This document shows, piece after piece, positions 3,868 through 31,847 of a DNA stretch of 39,593 nt (position 1 is the stretch's first letter; each line of letters opens with the position of its first letter). A program made the translations under genes and the position numbers. A model generated the notes under the pieces. It saw nothing but the letters and a program-made list of their open reading frames with translations, was not told the origin of the DNA and made no database searches. The stretch comes from Perkinsus olseni (lineage: Eukaryota), in contig JABANN010000321.1 of assembly GCA_013115125.1 (NCBI GenBank), positions 1 through 39,593 on the forward strand. The letters are read 5' to 3'.

Positions 3868-3908
3868 GCTCGTGCCGGGGTTCGAACCCGCGACCTTTAG
3901 ATTTGAAA
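3868..3908 (-). other. tRNA 3'-half-like fragment (anticodon-side, variable loop, T arm, acceptor 3' strand)
   Basis: Minus strand reads TTTCAAATCTAAAGGTCGCGGGTTCGAACCCCGGCACGAGC followed by TTT; no matching 5' half upstream. Confidence 0.5.
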
Positions 3909-4185
3909 CGGAAGAGGTTTTCATGTGAAGGTGATAGAGTAAATTGCAGAGCTCGTTTCGTTTCATTTTCATAGTAACACCATCTAATGCATTGAGTTGG
4001 CAATTTCAATCAGTATCTTTCCGCATATCTTCAACCTCGCAAGATTCATGTAGGTTGAGTTTTCATGGATTCCCTCAATGACATCTCGGATGTGTTCCAA
4101 GAAGCAACTCGGACGAAAAATGAAATAGACGATCTGCTCGGCCGAATGGAGGAGGCAGGTAGTATCTATGGTCGAACACTGGGGA

Positions 4186-4270
4186 GTATCTTCAGGTTGA
4201 AGATAGGAAAGTATCTTTAGGTTGAAGATAAGAAAGTATCTTTAGGTTGAAGATAGGAAAGTATCCTTAG
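4186..4270 (+). repeat. 25-bp minisatellite GTATCTTTAGGTTGAAGATAGGAAA, about 3.4 copies
   Basis: Tandem copies read directly. Confidence 0.9.
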
Positions 4271-4303
4271 TTTGCCTAAAAACTTCATGTCCAGCAATCC
4301 TGG

Positions 4304-4378
4304 GGTTTAGTATCCGTAGGCTGACTATGGTTTAGTATCCGTAGGCTGAGTGTGGTTTAGTATCCATAGGTTGATTAT
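4304..4378 (+). repeat. 25-bp minisatellite GGTTTAGTATCCGTAGGCTGACTAT, 3 copies
   Basis: Tandem copies read directly; shares a GTATC..TAGG.TGA core with the adjacent array. Confidence 0.9.
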
Positions 4379-4590
4379 AGTGTACCGCGGAATATGCAGG
4401 GATGTGGTCGTTAGAAACGTCCAACTCTATCCGTGCCATGGACTCTCGCCGCCCCACTGCCGCCTCGATCCGGCCACTGGTTTCAGAAATTTCGACCAGT
4501 GCAAGAAATTTCTTTTGTTAAGATTATCTTTCCGTATGAATTTCTAGAAGGCCAGTCAGAATAGTATTCAGGGGACGATGAACCAATCCT

Positions 4591-4672
4591 GAGACTCAGA
4601 GTCGATTCTGGAAACGCCTCATTTTACGTGTAAGAAACAATTCCAGAACCGATTATCCTGAGCTTCAGAATT
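4591..4672. repeat. About 80-bp dispersed element with paired AGAATCGATTCT palindromes (degenerate copy)
   Basis: Aligns by eye with 26703-26785 and 32251-32330. Confidence 0.6.
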
Positions 4673-5333
4673 GGGTCCTTGAACGTGATCCAGATGCAGG
4701 ATGCCTATCGAATAAAGTGTCTGACTAGGGAACATGTAGACAACAGCCGACTGCTACTCAGCACGCGTCCGTAGCGGTGTTCGACAAAAAATCGTGAAAC
4801 TCGGAATCTATTCTGGACCCGCATTCTATATTGTAAAGATCAATTCTACACCTCTTCCCGAGCAAATAGAAAGTTAGATGGATAATTAGTACGATACGAT
4901 TAACTAGATCGAGCTGTAGAATCGATTCTGACTTCCAAAATTAGAACCGGGGCTCCGTCGGGAACACTGAGTTGCTCAGGCCTGAGCACGTCTCGAAGCA
5001 GCAGCCTCAGTACACCGGCCAATCGGCCTGCCTCTGAGGGCAGCGAGGTTGCAGTACAGCAGCGGATGGCGATGTTGATGCAGCAGCTGGTGAAGTTGAC
5101 CAACCGTCTGGAGGAGTTGGCAAGGGGACCGCAGGGAAGCCCTATGTGGCGGAAGAGGGCAGCAAGAATGCGTAGGGAAGGGCCTCGAGTGTCGCTGGAA
5201 TCTTCTGTGCTTGCCGCGACCTTAGAATGTATCGTGTTAATTATCTAGGGACTCTGAGCTCAGACTAGGGGCAAGTTGGGGGGTGTTCTTCAGATTGTTT
5301 TTACACCGTTGTTTCGCGCGTTGTATGTTAACG

Positions 5334-5392
5334 AATATCTTAGGTTGATCCTTGCAGGAGACAGTTATAAATATCTTAGGTTGATCCTTGCA
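5334..5392 (+). repeat. Direct repeat AATATCTTAGGTTGATCCTTGCA x2 (36-bp period)
   Basis: Copies at 5334-5356 and 5370-5392. Confidence 0.85.
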
Positions 5393-6319
5393 ATAGATAG
5401 TTGTATCTCTCTCAGGCGACGACGTTGATGGTATCAAAGTCTCCACAGATCGTCTGTTAAATCACATTTTTCGTACACGGCAACGAGAGAAGCTTTTCGG
5501 CGCCAAAAATTCGAACGAAAACGGCGAAGATCAAACAGCAGAATCGCAGTTATTGCGAGAGCGCCAAGCCCTACAGCAGAGCGCGGGGATGCTGGATAGC
5601 ATCTTGGGGCAGGGTCATGCTACATTGGGAAAAATGACGCAACAGAACACAGTGTTGAAGGTAGTACGAAGAGGGCGGAGGGTGGTAGGGTTTTGAGAAT
5701 TGTCAGTGGGAAAATGGGAATTTCTTCTGTTCGACACAGTAATTCTGAAAATTCTAAATCGATTTGTACGCGCGAACTGAGGGTCCCAGTCCGGTTTTAT
5801 ATGCCGGGGTTAGCTCGGTGAATGGTACTTTTTTTATCTGCATAAAGCAAGTTTTGAAATTTTTCTGCTTAGCCGAAATATTTACCATTACGTGGCTTCG
5901 AGCAAGACTTGGCTCGGCACTGATGGTGAGAATTCCCCCCGAGTATCTTCGACAAAGATTCTCCATGATCTCGGGGCTTCGGCGAAAGATTCTCGCAGTT
6001 GCCATAATATATTCTGCGCACGGTGAAGAATTGTATCGTTACAGTATGTTGAATGATCGATGCAGAATCGAGAGGAATCTTAGGTCGAAGCATGCTCTTC
6101 TCAAGTTGATTACGATTATTCCGGATGCCATTCTTCTTCAGACGACGCGACGTAAAATGTATGACGTCCTGAACGCTGTTGGTCTGTCGTCAACACTCAG
6201 CACGAGTATTGACCGGAGGCAGAGGGTGGACGCCTGGATTGTTCGGGGAGGAATGGTACGATTAATTTGGAATTGAGAAAATAGCACTGTTTAGTTTTTT
6301 TGTTGAAGGCAATCTAAAT

Positions 6320-6541
6320 AATTTCGTGGCGCGCGAGAAAAGCGACGATTGTTTGAAAGTTTGTACAGTTCGTAGTGGAACGATTCTATCTCGGGTTACG
6401 TGTCTTACGAGAGTAGCAATTTCCTGGCGCGCGAGAAATGTAGCAGGTCGAAGAGCATAGCCTATCTTTGTGCTGCATGTTCAGGTTTTGTAAACTCGTT
6501 TACTTCGTAGTCGTAGGAGCAATTTCGTGGCGCGCGGGAAT
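6320..6541 (+). repeat. Three copies of AATTTC(G/C)TGGCGCGCG(A/G)GAA at about 100-bp spacing
   Basis: Copies start at 6320, 6418 and 6521. Confidence 0.8.
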
Positions 6542-6919
6542 TATGGTAGATCCGAGAGCCCAGTCCGTTGCTGTTTTCAGGTCTTCGTCGTGGCCCTGTT
6601 TTTCATCCTTTATTGGTTCCTCCGTGCTGGGAGATGAACCCGAAGGAGATGGTGGTTTATACCGCTCGAAGAGGGAGGCTAACGACGCCGTGCCGTCGCC
6701 ACTGGAACACGCCTGATACATTTATCAATATGGTGCTGTTCTATTTGGGTTCAGTGGGAGTGGAATTTGGGGACAGCCGTTGCACAATGAGGGCTAGAGC
6801 TGGCGCATCGATATCTTTGTTCTCGGTGAGGTTCAAGGTTCGACTTAAGATTCCTTGAGGATAATGTATGACGCAGTGTCAGTTTAGTTGTGAAAGAGTT
6901 TTATTTTCACTCGAGGGAG

Positions 6920-9327
6920 ATGACTCGTAGCGTTCCGCTCCGATCAGTCACTTTTGCTCGGCACTTGTCCATCATCCAAGACGCCTCTTCTAAGAAGACT
7001 GGGTGTATTCAGTACAGGGTTCCGGGAGGGGTCCAAGGGCGTATCTTTTATCCGGCAGTATCCGAGGTTCATCAAGGGTATAAGCAAACTTTGTGGTTCA
7101 CGGATCTCGAAAGATATGCGTGAGTTGGGAATGGGTCTTAGTCGTAACGGGCTGACCATTCAGTCCGGTGGCAAAAAACCTTTCCGAGTTTGAAGATTGA
7201 AACGAGACCGGGCGCGTTAGAGTGGAAATTCGAAGGCTTTTCGAGCGATGGAATGTCCGACCGGACTTAATCGCAGATTTTTTCTGCTACACAAGTGAGA
7301 GGAAAATATTTTTTATTCGAAGCCTGGAGGAAAGTTATCAGTTTTTGGCTGTTTTCGGATCCCTGAGTTGCAGTCCGTGAGTTCTTCTTATCGAACCGCC
7401 GTTCAGGACTGGCCAGTTGGACGTCGGCCGAGCTTTGTTTAGAAGATCTCGAGTAATGCAGATAGTTGCTTCGATCTTGGAGTGGATGGTGAAGATTGTA
7501 GCCTATGTTTTGCCGAGGTAGCATCTTGCAATCTTGCATTTCCTTAACGCTGGTTATGTCTTCAGTCGTTTGTTCGTACCAAAGCTGAGCTCGACTTATG
7601 ATCGTATCGAACCGGTCGAGGAGGGGTCGCTGCCACTTGTGGTGTTCTCGCATGGACTGACTGGAAATGGCGATGAAAACGCTATGCTGTGCTCAGCACT
7701 GACTCGTAAGTATTTATAGTGATTAGTTGGGGAAGCACTTGCCTTTCCATCGGAAGGTCTCTGGTTCGATCCTCCCGCGTGTCGTTTAGGTGAAATTGTC
7801 GGAGGTGCTATTGTGGCGGAAGTCCATCATCAGGATGGCTCAGCCTGCGAGGCGGTGGACGAGGACGGCCACAAAATACCATATATTCCGGTGGGAGCTC
7901 TTATCCATGGTACCCAGGTTCGATCCCCGGTGGCTTGATTTTAGGACCCCATTGGAAGCCCGGACCCCAGAGATCTTCGGCCTAAGCAAGTGCGCCAGCG
8001 TGCAAATGAGATGAACTCGGTGGTCGAGTAATACTACAACTTTTGTAATTTATGTATGTGAATATCCAACGGTTTCAGATACCTCTGTGCGATCGGGTCC
8101 GGTGAGGAGAGGTCGGATCCCTTGCTGAATCGTGTGGCGAGGTTGATCGACCCTCGTCGTATTATCCCTGTTGGTTACTCCTTTGGTGGTGCTACTGTGG
8201 CTGAATATTGTAATAATCGGAAGAATCTTCGAAGCTCGAGAAATGTCGTCTCGATTGGAGTTTCTCTCGCGGGAATAAAACTGTTATTACTCCTTCTGAA
8301 ACGGTCGCATCCGGAAGAGATTGCCTCGAAATCAGGCTGGGAGAATCGAGCTCTGGGCAGGGTCGGCTTAGCTTGGTCTCTGCCCTCCAGAGTCTGGAGG
8401 TCTCAGTGTCTTTTAGAATGAATGCTGAGCGCGTCATTCCCTATTGTCTGCAGGTTCCACAGTTGGTCTGAAGAAAGTGGAGGATAAGTGTGTGCCGTGC
8501 GCGGTATTGATGGACCCGTGGACGTACGTTACCCCTAGGGACGGCTCTCAAGGGTTCAACTTCCCTGAGAGAGCACATAAAGAAGGTACCAACGGGCGTT
8601 CTGTTTTAGCGGTTAACGGGGATGGTTTAGTACCGACGAAGACCCTAGCTCGAATCTGAGTCCCTAACGTTTAAGCAATGTATTCTCGTCCCGTATCGAA
8701 GGTGACTCTTTCTATGTACTTCTGGTAACCGGTAGGTATCTGAGAGGTGCGGAATAATTTTCGAAACTTATTTTTCCGTGTGAGCCCTTTGCTGTGCTTC
8801 TGCGTTTCTTACCGCCTGTCTCTTGAGGTTGTATGAAGTTGTGGTCAGGAATCCAAACACCGACACTGATCCTCGGTAGCGAGGAGTTCTCTAAGTACCC
8901 CGGTATGCGTGCCGCTACTGTGAACTTGCATGATAAGAGCTTGCAACCTGGAAGTCGGCTCAGGGTACGATTTGGTGAAGTTATGGTATGTGCGAATGTG
9001 CGAGTATTCTAGGTAGTCGATAAGACAAGACATGGCAACTTCATGGAGCTTTGTTTTTGGATGCCGAAGTTCCTCGTGCCGGTCGCGGCTAGGATTGGAT
9101 TATACGATAAGAACAACAAATCTGCGAGAGGTGAGCGGAAGGTTCACTATTCTTTAGCGGAGCGAAGTTTTTCTTCTGCAGGTACGTACTGCAAAATCAT
9201 AGCGTCGATCGCTAATTTCATATTTCTGAATACGTCCTCTCACGCCCACAGTGCGTTGGCGTCGAAAAGAGTTGAGGAAATACCAAGTGAGAGCAAGATG
9301 AGCAAGAGGAACAATCTAAAGGAGTGA
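6920..9327 (+). CDS. PAF-acetylhydrolase-like alpha/beta hydrolase, copy 1 (multi-exon)
   Basis: Exons encode GRIFYP, LPLVVFSHGLTG, EVHHQDGSA, GYSFGGATV (nucleophile elbow), VLMDPW and DKTRHGNF, separated by GT-AG introns. Exact exon structure not fully resolved. Confidence 0.75.
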
Positions 9328-11911
9328 ACTTCGTTATTGCTCACTTGGACATGAAGCCAAGATTTCAAGCGGTGTTTTATAGCTTGTTATGGTTGGCATT
9401 CGTTCGTGGTGTTGTTTTGCACCCGATGGTTTTGTTTTACGGCGATAATCTTCAGTCTTGTTTTCCGTCACGAATGTTCAGTTGAGTTGGCGTGCGGTGG
9501 TCTTGTCATTGGGAAGGTCTGGCGCGTCGGCTGCATGGGTCTTAGTGGTCATTGTACGTAGGGCTGAGAGAATGGGAGAAAGGAGTTCGGAAAATGAAGT
9601 CCGTGGGCTTGGAACCTGGGAGCTCCACTTGTCGCGAAAACTTTTAATGTGTAACCTGCGCGTCTTAGCCTGTGATGACGATCAGTCTGGAAGTATAAGA
9701 GAACCCGTGCAACGGTTTCAAGATTTGATCGAACTCTCGTATCGCGGTTAGTGATTCCACTTGGTAGAATCTACTGCCAAGTTGGTAACCTATGAAAATC
9801 CGTTCAAGGTCGGTGGAGAGATGCTTAAGTAGCATAGGTTGCGAATTGCCTGAAAGCTCTTCGAGAGAACCGTCATTGCAGACTTCCGAGAGTGTCAAAT
9901 TGACGCTGTCAGGGTGACCTCTGGATTTTCGCAGATGACTTGATTCGAGGCAGGTTGTCGGCGCGTAAAGGCGGACCGAAGAAGGCGTTTTGCAGATACG
10001 AAGTAACGAAGATCAAAAAGTCTTCAAGGTAAGCTGCCGTTTGAAAGGTTCCTGGTGCTGGTCTGCCACCTGAATTTGCCACTACGGGCGGGTGGAGAAG
10101 GTAGCGAAAAATCGTAGACGGGCGGTCGTGGAGCGCGACCATAGTTCGTGCTAATTTTCTCGGAAGATTCGAACCCTTAATTCTCAATTCTCCTTTCTTC
10201 AATCTTGCGTGTCTTTCCCGGAGGAAATCGATCGTTGCTCTCTACTAGCAGGCCTACGTGTAGTCGTCTACTTCCTCTTGTTTCGGTCTGTGGGAGACAG
10301 CTAAGTTGTCACAGCGGATCTTGCCTTTCTTTCCGAGAGAAACGTTGCCGGCCGCGCGGAGGCTACGAGTCGTACTTTAACGACTTGCAGTCTTCAGGGT
10401 TAGTATCTGTTGTATTTCAGCAGTCTCTCGCTTTGAGTATTCAACTGGCGATTGGATATTGCTGACTTTGAGATGCATGATCATCATGCACCAGCTTCGG
10501 CCCAGCTACGATGATTTCGCTAGTGTTATCCGCTCGAGTGTTCCGAGTGCTGAGCTAGCTCACGGGATTCTGAGATGCTCTCGGGTTGGGACTAGATGAG
10601 GACCTGGGGTGGATGAGGAAGCGTCACCGTAGACCGATTGGACCGTTGGAACGGGTTAGCTGCTGGTCAGCAACGTTATGAACGCTCGGAGTATCTCGGG
10701 TGACCGCGGGTTTCTGCAGGATGCAGCGAGTCTCTGCCCAGTGAAATGGGCTCCTGTGTTCGAGCAGCTCGAGCCAAGCTGTAATTCATCTACGTTAATC
10801 TAATTCATCTACGTTGCGCAATGACGTCGCCGAGCGGCGGTCGCTCGAATCACAGGTAGTGCTCGGCGGGTGGTCAGAGGTCCTGCGGCAGACGCGTTGG
10901 GGCAGGGGTTCAGACTTGATATTCGCCACTTGAGACAGACACTTCCATGAGACCGAGCGTGTGGGGAAGGTTATGGCGTGTTTATGTCTCTGTCCACATT
11001 CTCCTGGGCGTTCACAGTGGTTTGCCGTGCCACGGTATTGAAGCTTCGCTGACCCTATCAACCTGAGACGGAGATTCAAGCTAGCCAAAGCAAAGGAGTC
11101 GGTGATACACAACGTGGGTGACTTCTGGTCAGGGATGGTTTCCGAATCGTCTTCACGGAGCTATCAAAGGTTGTGGGGGCTGCGGACAGAGGCTCGTCAA
11201 ACTACGTGAGGAACAGCACCTACACAAATCAACACTGCCTTCAAGACACCAGGAACAAGTTGTTCGTAAGTGCGCATCGCGCGAACCGCATCGAGTGCCA
11301 TATGGGGGATCCGTTCTGAGGGAGAAAATATGAATAAACAGGGTGAGGGGGGACGAGATGCATGACTCCGAATCGAGGTGTGTTTCTATTCTTGCTCTTG
11401 AGTTGAAACTTTCGGTGGAAACGGGATGGTCTAGTTGTGTACATTTTTGAGCGGCTTTTTTGACAGTGTGAAATCTGAGGGAACTTCACCGCCGAAATGG
11501 CGCTGGCTGTCCTTCCGATGGTTCTAGGTTGCATCTTATATCATGTGCAGCTATTTAAGCTGGGGTTCTCTGCTTGAATTAAGGAGTGGAGGGATCGTCT
11601 CTCCTTCAGATGAATGAGTGCCTGTCAGGAACTCCCTAGAATGCATCGAGGCTCGCCTTTATCGGGGAAGGTTGACGTCTTCGTCTTCGTCCGGTATGAA
11701 CCTTCGGAGAATCTCTGGCAGAGATTAAGAGGAAATGACTGTTCAGTATTGGCTGTTGAAAGAACGTTTTAATTCATAACAGCGATCTTCCGAGTTTCGT
11801 CACAGAACTGCTTCTCTCGGAGTTGAACCAATTCGAACTCGTTTATGCCTGGCGGAGTGGATTTGGTGTGGATTAGTTTGTTCGTGATAAAGTTTGCTTC
11901 TTTTGAGGGCG

Positions 11912-14015
11912 ATGACTCGTGGTGTGCCCCTTCGCTCCGCTGTTTTCGCTCGGCACTCGCCCGTCAACCAAGAAAGCTCGACGAAGAAGACCGGTTGTAT
12001 TCAGTACAGGGTGCCAGGGAGTGTTGAGGGACGTATCTTTTATCCTGCAGTATCGGAAGTTGATCAAGGAACGAAACAGACAACGTGGTTTGCGGATCTT
12101 GAACGATATGCGTAGGTTCAGCCGATCGTTGGCCACCAGTAGTCGTGACTTCCATTCTCGTTCGCCAAGTAATACTAGGGGGAGAGGCAGAGATTTTCAG
12201 TCGCTCCTTCCCGGTGCAGCAGGACTGTGAGAGCCGGTTGCTACGCTAGGGTGAGTTCGACTAGAGATTTTCATTAGTTCGTTAAACTTCTTGACTTGAA
12301 GCATGATGATCGAGGGTCCTCTGGAACAATCTAAATGGGCGACTCCTCAGTGTCGTTGTATCCGTTCAGGACTGGTCAGTTGGACGTCGGCCGAGCTTTG
12401 TTAAGAAGATCTCGAGTGATGCAGATGGTTGCTTCGATCTTGGGGTGGATGGTGAAGATAATAGCTCATGTCCTGCCGAGGTAACATCTTGCAATCTTGC
12501 ATTTCCTTAACGCTGGTTATGTCTTCAGTCGTTTGTTCGTACCAAAGCTGAGCTCGACTTATGATCGTATCGAACCGGTCGAGGAGGGGTCGCTGCCACT
12601 TGTGGTGTTCTCGCATGGACTGACTAGAAATGGCGATGAAAACGCTATGCTGTGCTCGGCACTGACTCGTAAGCATGTCGGGAAGCACCTGCCTCTCCAT
12701 CGGAAGGTATCCGGTTCGATCCTTCCGCGTGTGGTTTAGGTGAAATTGTCGGAGGTGCTATTGTGGCGGAAGTCCATCATCAGGATGGCTCAGCCTGCGA
12801 GGCGGTGGACGAGGACGGCCACAAAATACCGTATGCTCCGGTAGGAAGCTCTCATCCATGGCACCCAGGTTCGATCCCCGGTGGCTTGATTCTAGGATCC
12901 CATCGGAAGCCCGGACCCCAGAGATCTTCGGCCTAAACAAGTGCGCCAGCGGGCAAATGAGATGAAGTCGGTGATCGAGTAATACCACCCCTTTCGTAAT
13001 TCATGTATGTGAATATCTGACGGTTTCAGATACCTCTGTGCAATCGGGACCGGTGAGGAGAGGTCGGATCCCTTGCTGAATCGTGTGGCGAGGTTGATCG
13101 ACCCTCGTCGTATTATCCCTGTTGGTTACTCCTTTGGTGGTGCTACTGTGGCTGAATATTGTAATAAACGGGAGAATCCCCGAACCTCGAAATGCGAGCT
13201 TGATAATAATTCGGTTCTGTTTCATAGTCTATGAATCATGGAGCCATTGTCAGGCCATGGCACAGGATTCGAGCACTCAGCTGGGTATTCCCTCAGTGAC
13301 TTCACATTGGCGTTGAGTATCTTTCCGGTCCTGACTGCGCAGTTCTGTCTGTAGGCTCGACAGTTGGTCTGAAGAAAGTGGAGGATAAGTGTGTGCCGTG
13401 CGCGGTATTGATGGACCCTTGGACATACGTTACCCCTAGGGACGGCTCTCAAGGGTTCAGACTACCTGAGAGAGCCCATGATCGAGGTTGGATATGAGAC
13501 CATTCTTATGCGTTTTATGAGAGGCTGAGGTGTTGTCAGGAATCCAAGTGCCGACGCTGACTCTCAGTAGTGAGGAGTTTATCAATTCTCCTGATATGCA
13601 AGCGGCTACTGTCAACTTGCACAATAAGAGCTTGCAACCTGCGAGTTTCGGGGTACGATTTGGTGGAATTTTGGTATGTGCGAATGTGCGAGTATTCTAG
13701 GTAGTTGATAAGACAAGACATGGCAATTTCATGGAGCTTTGTTTTTGGATGCCGAAGTTCCTCGTGCCAGTCGCAGCTAGGATGGGATTTTACGATAAGA
13801 ACAACAAATCTGCGAGAGGTGAGCGGAAGGCTCATCATTCTTTAGCGGAGCGAAGTTTTTTATGGGTAGATACATACCGGAAAATCGTTGCAGCGGTTGC
13901 CAATTTCATTCATTTGCAGACCTCTTCGGATGCTCACGGTCCGCTGGCACCGCGAATGCGCGGGGGAATATCTAGTGAGAGCAAGATGAGGAAGAGAGGC
14001 AATTTGAAGGAGTGA
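11912..14015 (+). CDS. PAF-acetylhydrolase-like alpha/beta hydrolase, copy 2 (tandem paralog)
   Basis: Near-identical exons to copy 1 (FSHGLTRNG, GYSFGG, MDPW, RHGNF); introns partly diverged. Confidence 0.75.
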
Positions 14016-14264: not shown

Positions 14265-15974
14265 ATGCCAGCCTCTTCGACGTATAGTGACGTTTCCACG
14301 GCCGATAGCATCGAGCCGAGCATCCCCGCCTCATCATCATCACCGCCCTCTACCTCGTCTTTAATAAATAAGTCAGGGGGAGATCTGAGCGTAGTGGATT
14401 TAATATGTGCTGATATGGACGGGACATTATTATCACCCGATCATAATATACCCGATATAACATTTAATAGGATTAATAAAGCTGATAATAATGGATGTAA
14501 CAACAACAAAACCATCATACCAACAATCCCCTGCATCAGGTCCGGTAGTACCCGCTACTGGGAGAAGTCGTGCCTCAGCTGTTCAATGTTTTGCACGCGG
14601 AGGCATTGACCTGTAATAATCGGGCGGGTCGTGAGTTCGATCCCCGCAGGGGGTGTTTTTCTGCAGTTATTCTCGGCCGGGTATTTATTTGAATGGAGCT
14701 ATCACCTACGACCATACAGGAGCAGTGGTAGCTGAAAAGATTCACTCTTACACAGATGTACCATCGGCGGGGCCTCTCCCTGAGCTTATTCGTATCCTGC
14801 ATGGTCGACTTGAAGATACGTTGAATGTGAATGTGCTTCTCAGATCGTCGAAGCCGTGAGAGTAGTGGAAGGCGTTGATGACGTCGTCGTATTGCTGTAT
14901 AATGGAGACAGAGTGCTAGCCCCTTGTAGCTCGGGGAGAATTGAGGAGATTTACGAATCGTAAAAAGTGTCGTGTGCGAGGATAGATCCGGGGACCTACC
15001 GATTCTGATGCAGACTGCATACGCCGTGCCCTGAGAACTGCGGTTCTTATGAGAAGATGCTCTCGAAGATCCACGATGAGGCCATACCCATCAACCTGGT
15101 AGAGCTGGGAGGACTGTGGCTGCCTGCACGAAGTGTCTGAGGGAAGCTCACCGATGAATCGACTTTATTTATTCGCGAATGACCCTTGAGTTTTTCCCAC
15201 CCGAATCGCTTCAGATTCACTTCATGTCGCTAGAAGGCCGGTTGCCAGAGGACATGCTGCGGAAGATCAGAACGTTTTCAGAGTAAGCTGTTATTCATGG
15301 GGCGCGGCGTTAGTCACTAGCACCAATTGCGACTGCAGTTAAGGAAGCCTGCACTGGCTTTTTGCTATGCTCTCTGCTATGGGCCGTGCTGTGAGGATGT
15401 ATAATGTATCGCGCTCCTTTGGCCGCGGAACCTCGGAACCGATCAGCCGCAGTATTCGTGTGCCGGAAGAATTCAATAGTAAAAATGACGGGAGCGAAAG
15501 GCTCTCGCCGCTGAAAGATGTACCCTCTGCAGATTGCCAAGAAGTATCCTTGTCTGAACAGGTCCAGCGGATGTACAGCAGCACAGTCTCTTTGGCGTTC
15601 CTGCGATGTGGTGCCCGCGGGGGTGAACAAAGGACTGGGAGTGAGAGTTCTGAAGGAAAATCAGGGATGTAAGCAGCGGGGATTGAACCTGGGTTGTTCG
15701 GTTGAAGGACTGAACCCGAAACTACGCCTGTTCAATCTCAGATGAACGGGTAGCATGTATCGGAGACGCATTAAATGACTTGGAGATGCTGCAGGAGGCT
15801 GATGTTCCAGTCGCTATGGGAAACGCCCTGCCCGAAATTAAGGTGACGGCGAGATCGATCGATATGTGGCGGATATGGTATTTTCAGAAAATTGCTTCTC
15901 TTGAAGTCAACCCGAATTCCAACTCGGAATTGCCGGGAGTGGCCGATTTAGTAGACCGCATCCTATCTAGTTAG
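14265..15974 (+). CDS. Cof-type HAD-IIB hydrolase, copy A (multi-exon)
   Basis: Motif I ADMDGTLL, motif II VPATGR, GIYLNGA, VNKG.G, motif IV CIGDALNDLEML..A...VAMGNA. Confidence 0.85.
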
Positions 15975-18636: not shown

Positions 18637-20751
18637 TCTACCTAGTCAGGGCGAGCGCAGAATACTTCCATAGAGAGTGATTCTCATCATTGATGGAAGA
18701 CTCCCATTGGCTAAAATCGAAAGTTACCCATTGGGTAACTTACCCAGGGTAAGTTCTCCAGGGGAACTCACGGGAATTTTAGCCCTTTCCAGCGAAATTT
18801 TTAAGAAGTCTCCGTGAAGAAGACCGTTTTTCGAGCTCTTTTTTGCGTTTCTTCACTAACAGCAGACTTCAAGACGCGATTTGTCAAGACGTCGTCCGAG
18901 AGCTTCCAGTTCATAGTTATCCAGGACTCTCGGCCCGCAACCGAGCCTCTTTTATGATACCAGATGGTATTGGTGCTGGGTACGGCTGCGCAGTGCTCGC
19001 AGCTGGTGCTCAAGAGTCGCGGCAGCAACTTCCACTGCAATCAGGCAGCAGCTGTACGAGAAGGCGATGAGTGTGGCCCGCGGGGATCTCATGTACTCGG
19101 CCACCATGTACCCCGCGGCTTGCACGATCCTCGTAGGCTCGTTAACCCCGGGACCTGGGACCCAGGTTGGTAATTCCACAACTCCGATGAAAGTGGTAGC
19201 AAATTGCTACTAGCAATTGCAGGGATTCGGGATCATGGGCAACGTCGCGATGGTGACCTACTCCTCGAGTTTTGAGGCTCGAGTGCCGCTGTTCCTGTGT
19301 TGCCTTGCCACGGCGGTCCTGTTTGTACCGGTTCACAAATTGTGAATAACAATGGTAAAAAGCAAATGCCACCACTTGGTCTACCTGGGACGCATACGTG
19401 GCGGCGATGACGAAGAATCATGGTCCTGATGTCAAGCAAGGCTGCAGAGGAGACGAGGGCGAGGATCCATGGGCCCAGACTTGAAGCTACCTGACAATGC
19501 AAGATAATATCTCGGAGATATGGAGCGGTATCTCGGCCTCATCATCGTAAACGCACTAAGAAGACTCGAAACTTGCAAGTCCAAGGCAATGTCCAGAGAC
19601 GAATTGAAGGATATGAAGACCTTCTCTTGGTCGGCTCACCAGCAACCGTCGAAGAGTGAGAAGGAGCGACAACCACCTGCGAAGCATATTCCGCGTAGAC
19701 TGGAGTCCAGTCTACACGTGCACTCGGTGTTTCCGTAGCTACCTCTTCCATCCGCAACCAATGTACAATAAGTCCAATAATGATTATTGGACAATCAATC
19801 AATAAGGCACGCGTATTATCTGCTGCGGGCCACAGCCTACGGCGGTGCCGGGTCACAGTTTGCGACCCCTTGTGCCTGCAACATCGGCGTACGAATCGTA
19901 CGGTAGGGTAGGCGTCTTAAGTCGTCTTAAGTCATTACTTGAGTGAATTGCGCCTATCTTACATGCCCTTTGTCGGTTCTCCCGGGTTCGATCCTGAGCT
20001 TGGACATTTTCCGGTATTTTTCGAATCCGCCCTCTCTGAGTTAAGCATCCTACGTGTATCACGCACCGATGAGAAGGCGGCCTGCTGCAGGCCGTAGGCC
20101 CCTCGTGTTTCATCACCGATTATTATTGTATAGAGCCTACACGGTAATAATGAGTAACAATCTCTTGTCTGAGATTCAGGCCACTAAACTTGCAATTCGA
20201 GTGTAATTTTCTTGTCATTTTTGGAGGCGTTTGAAGATCGTTCAGTTGAGAATCGTGAAGATTGAGAAGTTGCTGAGCGTGTGGAGATTCTCCACTGGAG
20301 AAACTAGCTGTTGTGTTGGCCTAACACTGTTGGTAGAGTGCCCTTTCCGAAGGGTTGATTTCAAGGCGACGTATACTTCCCGGAAATCTCTCGTGGAAAG
20401 ATTCGACAGAGCGAATCCTTCTGTCTCGTTTTGGCAGGGTTCGTAAGTTTTCGGGAAAGTATTTCCTTGCGGAATACAAGATTTTGGGAATTACCCGTTT
20501 GTAAGGTTTGGATAGGCTGCTCGATATGGTTACTGATCGCCGTCATGCCTTCAAGAGGGGCATTCCTTCGATGTAGTAACAGCTTTCCCCGGCAGTGAAC
20601 TTCTCTGCCTTTGGTGTAGCGTTCGGGGACACTGTGATACTCCATAGGTACTACGGTGATATTAGTGGTATACTATCCGATCTCAGCTATACCGGTGGTC
20701 GGACGATTCGTTCGCTATTGGGTGCTTCTGCTGACGGCATGCTCCCTTCAG

Positions 20752-22435
20752 GTTCTTGACGCAGTGTCCTGTCCCTCTTGAGAGATGACAAGTCAGCCGT
20801 TTTACTGTGCTACAGTGGGGATCGTGTATTAGCCCCCTACAGGGATAATAGGGTTATTGTTGAAGTCTTCCAGAAGTAAGTGATGCTTGATGCTATTTGG
20901 CTCCCTTTGTGCTGAGAGACGTGGCCATGTGCAGCAGCACATAGCAGAAGGAAAGCTTCCGTTGAGGACATCTGCTGTACTGAGTCGCTGCAAAATCCGC
21001 TCCGATCGCTCTCCGGCGATCTAAGCTTCGCTCAACCCTGTGCGTGTTGCTGCAGATGATGATTCACGGATATTCGTATCTGCGTCATTCGTTAGCGGAC
21101 TACTTCCAATGAATTGAAGTTACTCACTGCGAAAAAGTGTGATCTTGTAGAAGTCTGATTTTGCAGCACTCCCTCCTGGGATGATGGTGATCGTTGAGAA
21201 CATGCCGTTCGTCAGTGCGGTACATCGGCCATCTGACCATGCTCCGATCTGCTGTGTCGGAGGAATTGGTTGCTAGCTCCAGTCACAATCGATTGGTATT
21301 CAGACCGCATGGGAGTCCTCCTTGCTTTGTTGTTTTGGTGGGGTAAATAATTTTCGTGCTTTGGAAAGTTCGACTCGGTCGTTATTAAATAAAACTTGAA
21401 GAATTAATTAATTGAAAAAATATCGAGTGTTGCTCATTTTGTGAATTCCCTAGTAGTATGGTACGATTTTTACTGAGATCTTGTCTTTGCCGTGGGTCAA
21501 TTTTAGATTGTCATATACTGTTATCCCGAGGCATGATTTACCTTGCCTTTTTCTGCTAGGTTTGGCGATCCGATGCCGGAAGATTGCGGCACGTACGAGG
21601 GTATGTTGGAGAAAATAAGCGCGGAGATGTTGCCGGTTCATGTGGTAAGCGACTGTAGCTCATCCGCTGGCTGGATGTGGGTACCTTTTTAGATGCACGT
21701 GATGTCGTTTGAGGATCCTATCGCTGCTAGTATGTGCAAGAAATTGGACGATTTTGCAAAGTAGGGTGGTGGGGATGAACCGGGGACCTTTCGATGGAGA
21801 ACATGTTACTGGCCCAATTGATCAGAAGCAAGGGTTGTGTGGCTGCCCAGTCTGTTTCGATGGCGGTGGATATTGTGCCGCAGGGGGTTAGCAAGGGATA
21901 TGGCGTTAAAGTACTGAAGGAAAAACTAGGATGTAATATTACAGGGTATCTTAGGTTGAAGCGCGTCAGATACATTTCAGCTCGGGATAGCAGCATAGTG
22001 GCCTCTGTCAGATAAGTGTGTAGCTTGCATCGGGGATGCTATGAACGACTACGGCATGCTGCTGGAAGCAGACGTGCCTGTTGCCATGGGGAACGCTCTC
22101 CCTCAACTTAAGGTAATATACAGCCGGGTCGAGTCGACTTTTTATTAATGAGTAGTAGCGGGAATTTTCATACGATATACTGCCGCTTCTCACGCACCGT
22201 GGAAGGTCTCATCATTATTCCTAGAACAGTGAAAATACATTCTACTGCTAGTTCTGGTGGGTGTGACTCGTGACCTGATGATCACAGCTCGTTGTTGATG
22301 TTGATGGGTTTTATAATAAAACTTTTATTGTTTCAGTCCGTCGCCTCCTTTGAGGTCAATACCAACGCAGACACAAATTTGCCGGGCGTTGCTGATCTGA
22401 TTGATCGGGTCTGTGCCGCTAGGAAGAGTGTGTGA
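20752..22435 (+). pseudogene. Cof-type HAD-IIB hydrolase, copy B (no motif I found, frameshift in first recognisable exon)
   Basis: Exons CYSGDRVLAP, PEDCGTYEGMLEKI, VSKGYG, CIGDAMNDYGML..VAMGNA, LPGVADLIDRV. A tgtcc duplication gives a stop near 20780, and no DxDGT was seen upstream. Confidence 0.6.
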
Positions 22436-22556: not shown

Positions 22557-22642
22557 ATGGCTGGCCAGGCTGAGAAGAAGAACAAGGCGAGGGCTGAGCA
22601 ATTGACGGAGGTAGTAATCGGAAGGTCCCGGGTTCGAATCCT
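22557..22642 (+). pseudogene. Truncated duplicate of TMEM208-like exon 1 and start of intron 1
   Basis: MAGQAEKKNKARAEQLTE nearly identical to 27938 onward; similarity stops at GGTTCGAATCC. Confidence 0.8.
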
Positions 22643-23022
22643 ACTATTCGATCACAGCTTGCCCTTCATAGCATTCCAGTCATGCCGTGCATCCCCGCCG
22701 GAAAGAAAACTGATCACTCAATAGATTCTATCTGTCATGGCGGTGATTGAAAATCGAAAACAATTACAGTGTTTCGAGGATAAGAATGTCGTGAGTATCA
22801 TACTTAGAGTATGACTCACAGTGAGTCGCTCACTCTTGGTGAGCCACTGCTCGAGCGAGTCGACTCGACTCACCGAGTTTATACATCAAACCGTACATCA
22901 TGTACTTTGCATGGTACATCTAGTCGCGTCTCTTTCGAGTCATGAACGGCGGGGCCAAAAAGACTTGCGTTGTGGGCTAAAAAAGTATTTTTGGGAGACA
23001 TTCTCCCGGAGAATCGCTATAG

Positions 23023-26702: not shown

Positions 26703-26785
26703 CCAAACTCGGAATCGATTCTGGAACTACGTTCTTCTACGTGTCAAAATCGCTTCCAGAATCGATTCTGAGATTCAGAATTACT
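26703..26785. repeat. About 80-bp element with paired (A/G)GAATCGATTCT palindromes
   Basis: aaactcggaatcgattctggaa...ttccagaatcgattctgagattcagaatt. Confidence 0.65.
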
Positions 26786-27040
26786 TCGTTTAACGGGGGG
26801 TTTGTGTCATGCTGTGACCTGTTTATCGTTAGCACATGGTGTTTCTGGGCCAGGCCCGAGCGTATCTTCGCCAGCGAGGTCCTAGGAAATTTGATCGTCC
26901 GAAGGTGACGAGTATCTCTCCCACTGATGCTATTGGACACTTCCTTGTGATGATGATATCTCACAGTGAGATTCTCACTTTTGTCCATGCTGGTGGTCCT
27001 CCGCTATTGGGTGCTGCTGCTGATGGCATGATTATTTTGG

Positions 27041-27817
27041 GTAGTTGATGCAGTGTCCATGTTGAGAGACGACAAGTCGGTAGTTTCACTGTGCTACAGC
27101 GGAGATCGTGTATTGGCCCCTTACAGGGATGATAGGGTCATCGAAGCCTTCCAGAAGTGAGTGCTTGATTAAGTTTGGTCTACTACGTCCTGATGAATTT
27201 CCCTTCTTCTGCCCTCCGACCATCTCGGACATCTGTTCCTCGCTCAACATGCTGCAGTAGATCTCCACGACGCGTCGTGAGTGGGCTAACTGTTGTGGGG
27301 TGGGGTCAGCGTGCGTTGTCACCACCTTAACTCCTTGTCGTATCTCGTCGCAGATCTCAGTCGCGAACTTGTTGTCAAACACTCGTGTCGAACGGAATTG
27401 ATTTCGGAGCCTAGCTTCTCCTCGTCTGCCTCGTGCGAGATTTTTTTCCCGTGAAAACAACCCGCTCGGTCAACGCTTTAATAGGGTATTCTGACCCTAT
27501 AGCAGCAGACCTCCTGTAATGGTGGTCATCAGTGAATGGATGCCGTTCGGCAGAACATTTTCACACGAACCGATAACTGCAGTCTCGGAAGCTCCAGCCA
27601 CACTTGATTGATGTACCCGAATGCAGGGACGTCAGCCCAAGGCGCCTCTTCCAGTCGTGGTGGGGGAAAATGATTTTCTTTCAATAAAGATTCCGACGTG
27701 CTCGTTTGGAGTCTATTAAAAAGCATAACGAGTGTTGGCGATTTTGTGGGTTCTCTGGTGTACGGTACGATCTTCCATCTGATTGATCGGGTCTGTGCCG
27801 CTAGGAAGAGTTTGTGA
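27041..27817 (+). pseudogene. Cof-type HAD hydrolase, copy C, internal deletion of about 0.9 kb relative to copy B
   Basis: Exon VVDAVSMLRDDKSVVSLCYSGDRVLAPY. Sequence matching B at about 21460 is joined directly to sequence matching B at about 22395 (LIDRVCAARKSL*). Confidence 0.65.
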
Positions 27818-27937
27818 AGGGAGGTGTCTTTTTCAGTGTTTAGTTTTTCCTTGTCTTCGAGACGGAGATGGACGTGTTGAGTTGGAGGGGAGGTGGACGG
27901 TTTTTCATCAGTAAATTGTTTTTATCCACATCTCCTA

Positions 27938-29489
27938 ATGGCTGGCCAGGCTGAGAAGAAGAACAAGGCGAGGGCTGAGCAATTGACGAAGGTAGTAATC
28001 GAAAGGTCCCGGGTTCGAATCCCCGGGGGGGCGTCTCTGTCCCCATGACACAAAGCTTCCGGAAGGGTCACCGGGTAGCTGATGTGATTTGGGGGAAATG
28101 TGGTATCTGTTTTCAGTACTACTTCTTCGCAGTAGCGATTGTTAACTCGATATATATATCCTACAAGGTCCTGCCACAATGGAACACATTTGGTGAGTGG
28201 ATTTCTGTGGTTAGCGCGCGCCCTGGTGATCGATTTCCTCGGTAGCGACTGTTGTATTGGGAGGTAGACAGATTGTGAAGTGGTGTGAGAATTGAACTTG
28301 GGTCGTTTGAAGACGAACTGTGGGCGGAAGGGTGCTCTTCTCAGATGCCTACAACATCCTGGGTTTTATCCTCTTCTCTGTGGTATCATACTTCACCTAC
28401 AACTCCATCATCAGCTCCCTGAAACTGGGGGTGCCTGCTGATTCGAGCAACGATCTGTTCATTATCAACCTCACCACCCAGGTAGGAATGCTTGGTTGAG
28501 GTCCCTGGTTCAATCCCCGCGGCCTGCGTTTTTTCGCATGGGAGTTCCGCAGTATATCGGTTGAGCTTTCCTTTCCTTTAACTATCTAGTTTCCTAACTT
28601 TTCTTGTCAACGTGTCTCCACTCATACGCTGATCGGGAAAATGACTAGCAACTATCTTAGCGTTGAGGAAATGCAAGTGGAGCATGATTTGTCTAGATTC
28701 ATGATTCTCCTTGGTCAGTTCCTAGTGACGTTCACGTCGTATGGTTGGTATTTGTATCTGACCGTACCAGCCTATCTACTGTATAAGGCAGGACTGTTCA
28801 TCAAGGACTACGCCTTCGCTGGGGCTGGTCAAGAGGAGGTAGTTAGGAGTAGGGGGAGGAGTGGTATGTCAGATTATCATCGTTCTCGAGGCTGTCCATC
28901 TGAGTGAACCATCTTCTTGTGAGTGATTTGAGTGGGATATCATGAATTGATACTGCATGGTAGCTCAGCCTATGAGAGCCCATAATACTAATAATATCTG
29001 ACTAATATTGTTACTCAATTGTGCAATACTTATACTCTTAATATTGCATACGACAGTGGACACGTAGATTGAAGATGGGTCATCCTCATCACGACTCGGA
29101 CATGTTAGTAATACTGGTAGTAGCGCTGGACGACAGTTATCGCACCTACCTTTGCCGCTGGTTCGTTTCCTGTATGATCGTACATGATGATAGGGTCTAC
29201 ATTTTCTGCGGTGATATGACTTAGTCGGACATGCGAGTGATAGTAATACTGATACGACTGTCGCTCCCCTTAATGCTTTGACGCCGGTGGTACTTTTTTT
29301 CCTGTATTATCCTTCGTGATGGTAGGGTCTCCATCCACTGTGTATTCATTACTGCCTCGCTTGCTCGCGTCATTGTGTTACTTGTAGGAGACTGAGGAGT
29401 CGGAGGAGCAGCGTCGCAAGAGGGAGAAGAGAGAGGCTAAGAAGGAGCGCCACATGCAGCAGCCGAAGTACAGGGTTATGCGCAAGTGA
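27938..29489 (+). CDS. TMEM208: TMEM208/SND2-like (DUF788) ER membrane protein; exons about 27938-27991, 28117-28192, 28345-28481, 28719-28838, 29388-29489
   Basis: Spliced product MAGQAEKK...YYFFAVAIVNSIYI...NDLFIINLTTQFLVTFTSYGWYLYLTVPAYLLYK...basic tail KKERHMQQPKYRVMRK matches DUF788 family features; all introns are GT-AG. Confidence 0.75.
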
Positions 29490-29568
29490 TGGGCACAGGA
29501 TTTCTATTGGTCGGTGGGTGTTGGACTTGGGGTTGGGTGGGGAATGGAGATTCAGTTTTGTTTCGATC

Positions 29569-31847
29569 ATGCCGAGCATCCCCGCCCCCTCATCGCCTCC
29601 CTCTTCCTCGTCGTCTTTAATAAATAAGTCAGGGGGAGATCTGAGCGTAGTGGATTTAATATGTGCTGATATGGACGGGACATTATTATCACCCGATCAT
29701 AATATACCCGATATAACATTTAATAGGATTAATAAAGCTGATAATAATGGATGTAACAACAACAACAACAACAACAACAAAACCATCATACCAACAATCC
29801 CCTGCATCAGGTCCGGTAGTACCTGCTACTGGCAGATGCCGCTGGTCTGCTGCTAAGTGCTTCGCACCTGGAGGAGTTGACCTGTAATAAAATGCCCTGG
29901 GTGGGAATCGAACCCGGGACCTTTCGCAGGTACTCTCGTCCCGGTATCTACTTGAACGGTTGTGTGGTTTATGACCAGACTGGGTCTGTAGCGGCAGAGA
30001 AGACTCATTCTTACGATGATGTAATAAAATGCGGCAACCGGCGGTCAGGAAGGGTATCTTAGGTTGACCCATGCGTTTCTCGGAATGTGGTGATTCAGAA
30101 TTGAATCATTGTTGTCCCATTGTAATATTATTGTATATACTAACGGCTATAGTTTATTAAACTTAATATGCCTAAAAATGCTATAATAATACCACAAAAT
30201 TCATATATCATATATAATTATGATAAGATACCCTATGATACCGATGTTGCTCAGGTGGTGTCTGTAGTAAACAACTTCAAAGACGAGGATAATGTAGTGA
30301 TAATGTGCTGCAGTGGTGATCATGTCTACGCCCCTTTCGAGTCCCCCGTCATAGCGTCACTGGCCGACACGTAATATTAAAAAGAGGGGCAGATCGATCA
30401 AAGATTCGCCGTTTTCTTGTCGCTTGCCAGAGTCGACCTATGATTCTTTCGGTAGTTTGAATTTGGTTTAGTGCCCTTCCTGTCAGCTTTGTTGTTATAC
30501 GACGACTTTTAAAGAGTTTGGGCGATCGTGATGTCATGGGCTGCTTTGTCGATCGCCAGGTTTTTCTCTGTTTCATCATCTGTGTGTCTCCGGTAAAGAC
30601 TAATGAGGATCATCAGTGACGACCGCCAGCAAAGACTCCTTACTTGCTCTCATCAGTCAGGGTTCTCTCGGTGTTTTCATTGGAATCGGTGACCATTGTT
30701 ATTTCATATCGTCTGATGAGGATGATCGTTGCGGTCGAGTTGGTCTTGGCGTCATCTTCTTACGTATTTCTACTCGTCATTATTACGCAAGGTACGGCGA
30801 CCCTTACCCAGAGAACTGTGGGTCGTATGATGGTATGTTGGAGAGAATCAAGAAGGAGAGTATACCGGTCCATATGGTAGGTGGGGCATCCTCCTCTTGC
30901 TGGTGATCTTCGGACCATCAGCGTTGGTTATAGTGGGGCATAGGAACTTCCCAAGTACCACTACTATCGGTGCCTTTCCAGGGGAAGCCCGGGCGATCCT
31001 TCAGAGGTGCAGTGCTACTACTCGGATGCAGATAAATTCCTCGTCTCAATCCTCGAGCTCCTCGTCATCATTCGCCAGACCTTCTGCGTCAGGATTGCTG
31101 GGCAATCGATACTGATGAGGCGTATCTCGTACGTGGTTCGTTCTCAGATTCATATCATGTCTACAGAGGGGTCGCTGTCGCCAACGGTGTTGGAGAAAGC
31201 TCAGAATTTCGCCAAGTACATGGGCGAGTTCGTGCCGAGTCGTCGTAGTAACGTGGAGGAATCTTCTTCTCCGTGCGCTAGGTCGGGAGGCTGCACCTCG
31301 GCACAGTCTCTGCCGTTCTTGACGGATATCATCCCCGCTGGAGCACACAAGGGTTTTGGAGTCGATGCTCTTGAGGAGAAGCTGGGATGTAGGCGGAGCG
31401 AAGCGATTCATGATTGCACATTTTCGGTGGTGATTGGTCAGATAAGTGCGTAGCCTGTGTTGGTGATGCCCTCAACGACTACCAGATGCTCAAGGAGGCC
31501 GATATTTCCGTTGCTATGGGAAATGCCATCCCTCAAATCAAGGTGAGTGAGGAACTTCCCTGCCATAGATTCAGTCCCGGGTTCGATCCCTGGTGGAGGC
31601 ATTTCTGATATATTTGCTATTCTATTGGTGGTGATTCTATTACTTCACTTGAAAAAGTTTACCAATCACTACCAATTCCGGCAGTTCCCGTTCTGTTGAC
31701 AACCCCACAGCGCTCCGCATGCTTGTCCGTCGTTCATGTGTTTTTCTGCAGGAGCTGGCCTCGATGGAGGTGAACCCGAACTCAGCTGAAGTGCCCGGCG
31801 TCGCCGATCTCGTAGATAGGGTCCTGGCCGCTAAGCGTGCTCATTAA
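29569..31847 (+). CDS. Cof-type HAD-IIB hydrolase, copy D (multi-exon)
   Basis: ADMDGTLL, VPATGR, RPGIYLNG, AHKGFG, CVGDALNDYQML..VAMGNA, VPGVADLVDRVL*. Confidence 0.85.
29754..29780 (+). repeat. (AAC)n microsatellite in HAD copy D intron 1
   Basis: About 8 units here versus about 3 in the equivalent intron of copy A. Confidence 0.85.

Follow-up and report, generated by a model that had tools for sequence, protein, structure and literature searches.

Introns in a 39,593-nt stretch of the Perkinsus olseni genome (assembly GCA_013115125.1, contig JABANN010000321.1, positions 1 to 39,593; hereafter the window) carry copies of a unit of about 40–45 nt that spans the 3' half of a tRNA, from the anticodon loop through the T arm to the 3' acceptor strand. 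The copies occupy spliced introns of unrelated genes, are enriched there, have neither a 5' half nor the body of a short interspersed element (SINE), and, in the HAD genes, arrived later than the introns in which they sit. We lean towards the explanation that they are dead-on-arrival relics of tRNA 3' halves, produced via an RNA intermediate, which have accumulated in pre-existing short introns. All counts given below refer to this window.

A search for the T-arm core GGTTCGAWCCC with at most one mismatch yielded 19 matches at 14 sites, as the core is palindromic and five sites were scored on both strands; dinucleotide-preserving shuffles (n = 100) gave 1.10 matches on average and at most 6. 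The pattern is real and highly non-random, while the strong look of core conservation is largely an ascertainment effect, since the core itself was the search query. One core site, at 10166, is probably due to chance (nhmmer E = 8.3). An nhmmer profile of 45 columns was then built from ten copies. Over the window it produced 12 matches with E ≤ 5.5e-5 and four more with E between 0.0058 and 0.048, 16 in total, on both strands (Table 1). The ten training copies match by construction; the six matches outside the training set are those at 12698, 12854, 22616, 9591, 14964 and 21771. An earlier reading of the same DNA, here called the original prediction, had listed 14 places in both orientations, and the profile found all of them again: 3868 (minus), 7754, 7909, 12704, 12860, 14626, about 14975 (minus), 15673 (minus), 19981, 22621, 28001, 28499, 29893 (minus) and 31574. 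It added the copies at 9591–9630(−) and 21771–21795(−), and there was no profile match within 1–3800 or 32000–39593. Three pairs of copies (7748/12698, 7903/12854 and 22616/27997) belong to segmental duplications and carry one event each, the PAF-AH A/B and TMEM208 duplicates being 94–95% identical. With duplicates merged, there are 13 independent events within about 28 kb.

Reference tRNAs were obtained by scanning metagenome contigs with a 25-nt pattern common to two copies, which gave 19 loci from unrelated organisms. ARAGORN recognised tRNA genes in three of these loci, namely tRNA-Met in L017 and L019 and tRNA-Pro in L001; the remaining 16, on reading, resemble tRNA-derived heads of the SINE kind or sequences similar to tRNA. 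Local alignments of the copies with tRNA-Met L017 and tRNA-Pro L001 extend from positions 33–48 through to 63–77, and the TMEM208 copy at 27997..28039 is identical to tRNA-Met at 28 of 28 positions (36–63). The T loop is followed by 5 nt of the T stem and 8 nt of the acceptor strand plus discriminator base, and then by a T run. A run of TTT or longer starts at offset 13 in ten of the 16 copies and at offset 14 in one, and by eye the copy at 3878 has it at offset 12; the background frequency of a first T run at offset 12–14 is only 3.3% of window positions. The T run is missing from four of the 16 (12868, 15679, 22631 and 28012), which include a point-mutated duplicate and a truncated duplicate; at 15679 the corresponding position is exon. 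CCA is found in none of the 16. Acceptor strands vary among the copies, which in the profile alignment are diverse, not near-identical. T stems have one to three mismatches, and the B box is destroyed at 14964 and 21771.

The copies are tRNA 3' halves, in tRNA register. The original prediction had proposed a tRNA origin and described the motif as followed by about 8 nt and often a T run; the alignment to tRNA positions bears out the former, and the latter spacing proved exact (5 + 8 nt from the T loop in ten of 16). It had also named CCA versus T-run ends as a check, and most ends are T runs, none CCA. The lack of CCA together with the oligo-T end means that the source was either a tRNA gene or a transcript that was unprocessed or lacked CCA, and not a mature tRNA. 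The diversity of acceptor strands suggests several sources.

No complete tRNA gene is present: ARAGORN found none in the window, and Rfam, run on the whole window and on 27900–31800, returned no tRNA match at E ≤ 10, which rules such genes out. The only Rfam matches were a 13-nt tmRNA T-arm match (29903–29915) and a match to plastid ycf2 (31554–31602), both reflecting the T arm. The 60 nt upstream of each of 14 copies were set against reference 5' halves, and in none of the 14 did the score beat that of its own shuffles; a profile of 15 distinct reference 5' halves, all from other organisms, had no match in the window (best E = 2.3). Two candidate 5' elements were rejected. A D-arm-like stretch in intron 7705–7789 scored 16 against a shuffle mean of 16.2, and the idea of a near-full-length tRNA there was dropped; the 5'-half profile does not recognise an A-box-like sequence, GTAGCTCA, that intron 5 of the third HAD copy contains. 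A shared body or a tail related to a long interspersed element (LINE) is likewise absent from the ±120-nt flanks of 13 independent copies, where all 78 pairs on each side fall within the shuffle range. The 5' limit of the unit is near the anticodon loop. The claim of a very short unit with no 5' half thus stands, and neither complete tRNA genes nor a longer SINE were found behind the fragments. Having no A box, the copies cannot be transcribed on their own, i.e., they are dead on arrival.

Splicing of the host introns was assessed over 12300–32200 with contigs of three RNA-like runs, X18 (recorded as RNA), X8 (guessed to be RNA) and X7 (kind unrecorded), and of a DNA run, X1. Among the joints listed (15 of 58), at least 14 GT..AG joints occur in X8, X7 and X18, and none in X1. 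Six of the 14 introns confirmed by RNA among these joints hold a copy with E < 0.05, namely 12669–12739, 12841–12895, 27992–28116, 28482–28718, 29884–29929 and 31543–31751. The PAF-AH A introns 7705–7789 and 7891–7944 were derived from the reading frame and paralogy, and the eight HAD A introns from the frame and homology to the RNA-supported HAD D model; HAD A intron 1 is supported by one loose contig end in X7. Altogether 36 introns were modelled, occupying 15.7% of the window and containing 11 of the 16 copies (binomial P = 3e-6). For independent events the fraction is 9/13 (P = 1.5e-5, or 0.004 if half of the window is counted as non-coding). The copies at 21771 and 22616 are in introns of partial gene copies, and those at 3864, 9591 and 19979 lie outside any modelled intron. 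No copy was found in the introns of the SNARE (three introns), DnaJ and carbonic anhydrase genes. The residence in introns of unrelated genes that had been read from the sequence is hence supported by joints present in the RNA-like runs and absent from X1, and the intronic enrichment that was to be checked holds within the window.

The relative age of introns and copies can be seen in the HAD genes. Exons 4–8 of HAD A and HAD D have equal lengths (116, 85, 68, 107 and 101 nt) and the junctions match elsewhere, so that all eight intron positions are common to both genes. Their exons 3–9 are 56–71% identical, meaning that the HAD duplication is old. At intron 2, HAD A has a sense copy and HAD D an antisense one. 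Intron 4 has an antisense copy in HAD A and no match in HAD D, and the same holds for intron 7. At intron 8, HAD A has none and HAD D a sense copy, and at intron 6 both HAD A and HAD D have none, while the third HAD copy carries an antisense one. In all six testable copy-bearing HAD introns the position is therefore shared with a paralogue that lacks the copy or carries it inverted. Such differences in presence and orientation at shared positions indicate that the copies colonised existing introns and did not create them; this argues against intron creation by insertion, at least as far as the aligned HAD gene family goes. The PAF-AH A/B and TMEM208 duplicates share their copies, and those insertions pre-date the recent duplications.

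Two further observations concern these paralogues. HAD A 14265–14611 and HAD D 29569–29883, i.e., exon 1 and intron 1, are 93–95% identical, which suggests a recent gene conversion that stopped at the first 7 nt (GTAATAA) of intron 2. The 5' part of TMEM208 is duplicated (22395–22641 versus 27777–28022; repeat D6, 22475–22641 = 27856–28022), and the duplicated block ends exactly inside the T loop of the copy, with unrelated sequences beyond. Copies may thus mark rearrangement breakpoints.

In short introns the copies meet the splice sites with their ends. In minimal introns of 46–55 nt the copy is nearly the whole intron, in agreement with the original prediction that such fragments make up much of introns of 45–80 nt. 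Profile matches of the sense copies at 7748, 7903, 12698, 12854 and 14622 end 0–5 nt from the 3' splice site, and in short introns the T run of a sense copy stands immediately before AG, where a polypyrimidine tract is expected. Antisense copies in short introns start right after GT; the introns beginning at 15669 and 21762 have a 5' splice site that reads as the acceptor end in reverse complement. Three long introns have strong matches, and there the distance from the 5' splice site to the copy is 5 nt (intron of 125 nt), 14 nt (237 nt) and 26 nt (209 nt). A hand-worked combined test of the distance to the nearer splice site, applied partly post hoc to the five introns with slack, gave P ≈ 0.02; with so small a sample we treat adjacency in such introns as no more than suggestive. 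The weak match at 28286..28307 is internal and, alone among the candidates, is not next to a splice site. Within the T loop stands TCGAT or TCGAA, 17–26 nt from AG in short introns, and one may speculate that the loop could serve as a branch point. Judging from their placement, the T run and the T loop would act as splice signals. Five introns (12979, 14612, 29884, 30021 and 30371) begin with GTAATA and not with GTAAGT or GTGAGT; these starts may be partly derived from antisense T runs of copies.

Table 1. tRNA 3'-half copies in the window, followed by two possible relics and one weak match
Position	Strand	nhmmer E	Location	Details
3864..3903	−	1.6e-7	Outside modelled introns, ~160 nt upstream of the first SNARE coding match	Aligned with reference tRNA-Met positions 33–66
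7748..7789	+	1.3e-6	Sense, 3' end of PAF-AH A intron 7705–7789 (85 nt)	TTT run, then AG directly; intron inferred from frame and paralogy with RNA-confirmed 12669–12739
7903..7943	+	9.1e-7	Sense, fills PAF-AH A intron 7891–7944 (54 nt)	Intron from reading-frame model; paralogous intron RNA-confirmed
9591..9630	−	0.0058	Downstream of PAF-AH A, outside modelled introns	Weaker match; T run at offset 13
12698..12738	+	0.0077	PAF-AH B intron 12669–12739 (71 nt)	Duplicate of the 7748 copy; GT..AG joint 12668>12740 in X8, X7 and X18, not in X1
12854..12894	+	2.9e-6	Fills PAF-AH B intron 12841–12895 (55 nt)	Duplicate of the 7903 copy; joint 12839>12895 (cut +1) in three RNA-like runs
14622..14660	+	7.6e-6	Sense, fills HAD A intron 2 (14612–14665, 54 nt)	TTTTT just 5' of CTGCAG; same intron position as HAD D 29884–29929
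14964..15003	−	0.026	Antisense, fills HAD A intron 4 (14960–15013, 54 nt)	Degenerate; T run of the copy, reverse-complemented, reads as the 5' splice site GTAAAAAG
15663..15702	−	5.5e-5	Antisense, 5' end of HAD A intron 7 (15669–15741, 73 nt)	Acceptor end of the copy, reverse-complemented, reads as the 5' splice site GTAAGC
19979..20010	+	3.3e-5	Stretch without recognised gene	Nearby ORF 19545–19916(−): no homologues found
21771..21795	−	0.048	Antisense, 5' end of intron 6 of the third HAD-like copy (about 21762–21827, 66 nt)	Degenerate; intron from tblastn with P0005 and sequence reading
22616..22644	+	3e-5	TMEM208 5' fragment	Truncated duplicate of the 27997 copy
27997..28039	+	3.6e-8	Sense, 5 nt after 5' splice site of TMEM208 intron 27992–28116 (125 nt)	Joint in three RNA-like runs
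28496..28533	+	6.4e-7	Sense, 14 nt after 5' splice site of TMEM208 intron 28482–28718 (237 nt)	
29888..29928	−	6.5e-9	Antisense, fills HAD D intron 2 (29884–29929, 46 nt)	Best match; intron begins GTAATAAAATG, the reverse complement of the T run plus ATTAC; the three RNA-like runs share joint 29883>29930
31569..31607	+	5.4e-8	Sense, 26 nt after 5' splice site of HAD D intron 8 (31543–31751, 209 nt)	
30021..30060	−	no match	HAD D intron 3	Possible relic, by eye; T arm lost; first 12 nt of intron (GTAATAAAATGC) same as in HAD D intron 2
14758..14800	+	no match	Start of HAD A intron 3	Possible relic, by eye; T loop missing; like the 5' part of the 7748 copy plus the acceptor part of the 19979 copy
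28286..28307	−	1.1	Internal in TMEM208 intron 28193–28344	Weak T-arm-like match, may be chance

The account towards which we lean would run as follows. The source of the relics would be the 3' half of tRNA genes, or of the RNA polymerase III (Pol III) primary transcripts made from them, copied from the anticodon loop to the discriminator base. The RNA intermediate may have been a 3' tRNA half, or it may have given a cDNA that stopped in the anticodon loop, and the resulting piece could have been integrated or captured at a DNA break. Selection would remove insertions into exons, and copies would accumulate in short spliceosomal introns, where the T run of a sense copy would now stand in place of the polypyrimidine tract and the complement of an antisense one would form a 5' splice site of the GTAA(A) type. 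Several refinements are conceivable. The templates might be 3' halves cut in the anticodon loop, or cDNA synthesis might be arrested at an anticodon-loop modification; U-tailed or CCA-less RNA might be primed on A runs beside splice sites; or the pieces might be captured as filler in break repair, only repairs that restore a spliceable length surviving. In P. marinus, a study of Dada transposons reports 349 tRNA-Leu, 116 tRNA-Gly, 46 and 9 tRNA-Ile and 23 tRNA-Tyr genes above 95% identity (PMC3706591). Near-identical tRNA genes by the hundreds mean that tRNA genes are unusually amplified in the genus, which fits this account, as do the missing CCA, the oligo-T end, the lack of an A box and the variety of acceptor strands.

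Several points weigh against it. No reverse transcriptase or LINE-like ORF is found among the 139 open reading frames (ORFs) of 80 aa or more. The 5' ends are clustered near the anticodon loop, while random 5' truncation would scatter them, and hence classical truncation of the LINE type alone does not fit. Target-site duplications (TSDs) are also wanting: a flanking direct repeat beyond the shuffles was found in one of 13 copies, and it lies in an exon; TSDs could have decayed, since the copies are old, and the copy boundaries are uncertain as well. The T run follows the discriminator base with zero spacing despite differing acceptor strands, which is odd if each copy carries the terminator of its own source gene. 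Simple insertion does not explain why the content of short introns has been replaced by the copy almost wholly, nor is there an explanation why the three long-intron copies lie with their 5' ends against the 5' splice site. For HAD A and PAF-AH A the introns come from models, with no RNA joint among the joints listed. Finally, all counts come from a single window and the reference tRNAs from other organisms.

A further reading is that 3' halves of Pol III tRNA transcripts form a distinct ~42-nt unit, mobile or captured, that would be aimed at intron ends proximal to splice sites and would work as a kit renewing minimal introns genome-wide. Here the T run would provide the polypyrimidine tract, or GTAAAA when antisense, and the near-palindromic T loop (TCGAT/TCGAA) a branch-point-like motif. 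We regard this as a tentative possibility. An RNA intermediate might also be dispensable: copying from tRNA genes at the DNA level, by template switch, by break repair or as a by-product of Dada transposons, would be consistent with the absence of CCA and the immediate T run, both as in genomic tRNA genes, with the failure to find TSDs, and with the duplication breakpoint inside the T loop of one copy. In P. marinus, tRNA genes are insertion sites of Dada families, which may leave elements flanked by tRNA fragments (PMC3706591). However, the reported Dada target TAGCTC lies in the A box (PMC3706591), so that fragments would start from the D arm and not from the anticodon loop; moreover, no Dada-like sequence lies beside any copy and no transposase domain occurs among the ORFs. 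We consider copying at the DNA level rather improbable.

If the unit had made introns by inserting into exons, bringing or recruiting splice sites as introners do, one would understand why five independent short introns (7891, 14612, 14960, 29884 and partly 7705) are nearly spanned by it with the T run or its complement at a splice site, and why both orientations occur, as in some introner classes described for dinoflagellates (bioRxiv 10.1101/2020.10.14.339549). Such an origin is nevertheless quite unlikely, given that in 6/6 cases the copy-bearing HAD introns are at positions of old paralogues in which the copy is lacking or inverted. In addition, there is no TSD signal, the 5' splice-site tetramer does not match the first four exon bases after the intron (by reading), the copies are diverse, and some are found outside modelled introns (3864, 9591 and 19979). 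A dinoflagellate-type 4-nt TSD used as the 5' splice site was sought by eye in ten introns and was not consistent.

The original prediction had offered three origins: a mobile unit, fragments captured at breaks, and dispersed TFIIIC sites. The first two both fit and the data do not separate them, while the third is the weakest, because the acceptor strand and T run are not needed for TFIIIC binding and the T stems and B boxes have decayed. In that reading, selection would keep B boxes in gene bodies as functional extra-TFIIIC sites controlling chromatin or transcription. The sites are dense and independent of orientation, and the 11-nt core shows no differences at 33 positions of the three duplicated pairs while the surrounding introns differ at ~9%, but this contrast is not significant (P roughly 0.05–0.2) and the core conservation is an ascertainment effect of the core-based search. 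The exact tRNA spacing of the acceptor strand and T run would be superfluous for a B-box site, T stems have decayed, and the B boxes at 14964 and 21771 are broken; we would give such a function little credence. It is scarcely credible that the copies are chance or convergent intron hairpins resembling a T arm, short and palindromic as the T-arm core is, with 19 matches against 1.1 expected, up to 28 nt identical to a real tRNA, and a fixed spacing of the T run.

Among known systems, the copies belong with tRNA-derived dispersed sequences; a possible tie of the unit to intron ends would be more interesting. Like tRNA-derived SINEs, they originate from Pol III tRNA genes, are dispersed, contain a B box, occur in both orientations and are common in genic regions. 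Unlike SINEs, they have no A box or 5' half, no body, no LINE-derived tail and no detected TSDs, and are only about 40–45 nt long. They also resemble 5'-truncated retrocopies and tRNA retropseudogenes, in which parts of small RNAs were likewise inserted dead on arrival and with no poly(A) tail. The mammalian tailless retropseudogenes mostly keep the 5' part, whereas the Perkinsus copies keep the 3' half and have a fairly fixed 5' limit and an oligo-T end, and no partner element is known for them. Yeast extra-TFIIIC sites share with them an isolated B-box consensus away from tRNA genes; in Perkinsus, however, the B box, whose consensus is seen in the sequence at 13 sites, stands within a full 3'-half context and is decaying.

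Introners, known from Micromonas, Aureococcus, fungi, dinoflagellates and Amoebophrya, are likewise repeats that fill whole introns and have splice sites at or near their ends. They occur in related alveolates, and those of Amoebophrya have inverted and direct repeats, as stated in the respective reports (PMC7789003; bioRxiv 10.1101/2020.10.14.339549). By contrast, the Perkinsus intron positions pre-date the copies in all six testable HAD cases, inverted repeats are lacking, no TSDs were detected, and copies also lie outside introns. Nor do the copies form a near-identical family with defined ends, their acceptor strands being different. The Dada DNA transposons of P. marinus come from the same genus and involve amplified tRNA genes, but are 4.7–11 kb long and insert in the A box of tRNA genes (PMC3706591), as opposed to 40-nt 3' halves in introns with no Dada nearby.

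Perkinsus introns measure 39–1622 bp, mostly under 100 bp, according to a survey of intron frequency. In the available parts of the introner surveys and of the dinoflagellate preprint (bioRxiv 10.1101/2020.10.14.339549) there is no mention of tRNA, SINEs or Perkinsus, and "tRNA-derived" is absent from the abridged entries of the papers listed on introners and intron gain. Within the passages seen, the Amoebophrya genome paper (PMC7789003) mentions tRNA only in plastid aminoacyl-tRNA synthetases. Among the papers listed, and in the excerpts given, the study of Dada transposons is the only one that treats tRNA genes of Perkinsus; those on SINEs and tRNA-derived elements do not mention Perkinsus. 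We found no description of tRNA-half copies in Perkinsus introns in this literature, the scope of which did not include Repbase, figure 2 of PMC3706591 and the P. olseni/P. chesapeaki genome paper. A tRNA-derived element colonising introns would, if true, be of a kind not described among introners or SINEs.

If the window is typical, a large share of short Perkinsus introns is made from relics of tRNA halves (here 11 of 36 modelled introns, and 6 of the 14 confirmed by RNA among the joints listed). This would tie together the amplification of tRNA genes, the activity of reverse transcription or break repair, and the way intron sequence turns over, and would provide a datable marker for the replacement of minimal-intron content at fixed positions, a side of intron evolution that is seldom visible. 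In practice, the copies will confuse the annotation of tRNAs and repeats and the gene models in Perkinsus assemblies, and insertions that are shared or private could be used to tell strains or species apart.

The host genes were identified as follows. Exon 7522–7704 is 96% identical to NCBI P. olseni proteins named platelet-activating factor acetylhydrolase (PAF-AH). A Pfam search of the 139 ORFs (at least 80 aa) revealed carbonic anhydrase, V-SNARE, two HAD (Hydrolase_3) genes, TMEM208 and DnaJ; both PAF-AH genes were named by protein matches, with only a weak Pfam match to alpha/beta-hydrolase in one exon. A third, partial HAD copy is situated at 21570–22420. The P. chesapeaki NCBI protein P0005 (868 aa) aligns over the SNARE, PAF-AH and HAD genes (4065–15974) and is probably a merged gene model in that record. 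No relative was found in metagenome contigs searched with the P. olseni PAF-AH protein. The region of the last TMEM208 intron, 28839–29487, includes an intron of 549 nt and a final exon at about 29388–29487, which ends ~80 nt before the HAD D start codon. A tandem repeat with a 25-nt unit, 50-nt copies being spaced at 25 nt (family D11), occupies 4170–4269, starts ~10 nt after the first SNARE coding match and probably lies in the first SNARE intron.

The RNA-like contigs yielded some additional observations. Loose ends reading ...CTTGGCTCA occur just upstream of 29554 and 31963. We take this sequence to be the 3' end of the dinoflagellate/Perkinsus spliced leader (SL); if so, the two sites are SL trans-splice acceptors, one 15 nt before the HAD D start codon and the other upstream of DnaJ. 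At 23588–24251 (loose ends at 24000 and 24043) the summed contig depth is far above the rest (21,321 in X8 and 2,372 in X7); the contigs match only about 44 nt and then diverge from the window, and Rfam gave nothing. Here the window seems to have a short piece in common with a highly abundant RNA. A 44-nt piece at 18230–18273 is matched in all three RNA-like runs, with divergence on both sides and identical loose ends, and is probably a segment shared with another expressed locus. Finally, X8 and X7 share one joint at 13162–13360 that leaves out 197 nt, has AA..CG ends and adds three letters (TCC); it probably represents a transcript of a divergent allele or paralogue, not a non-canonical intron.

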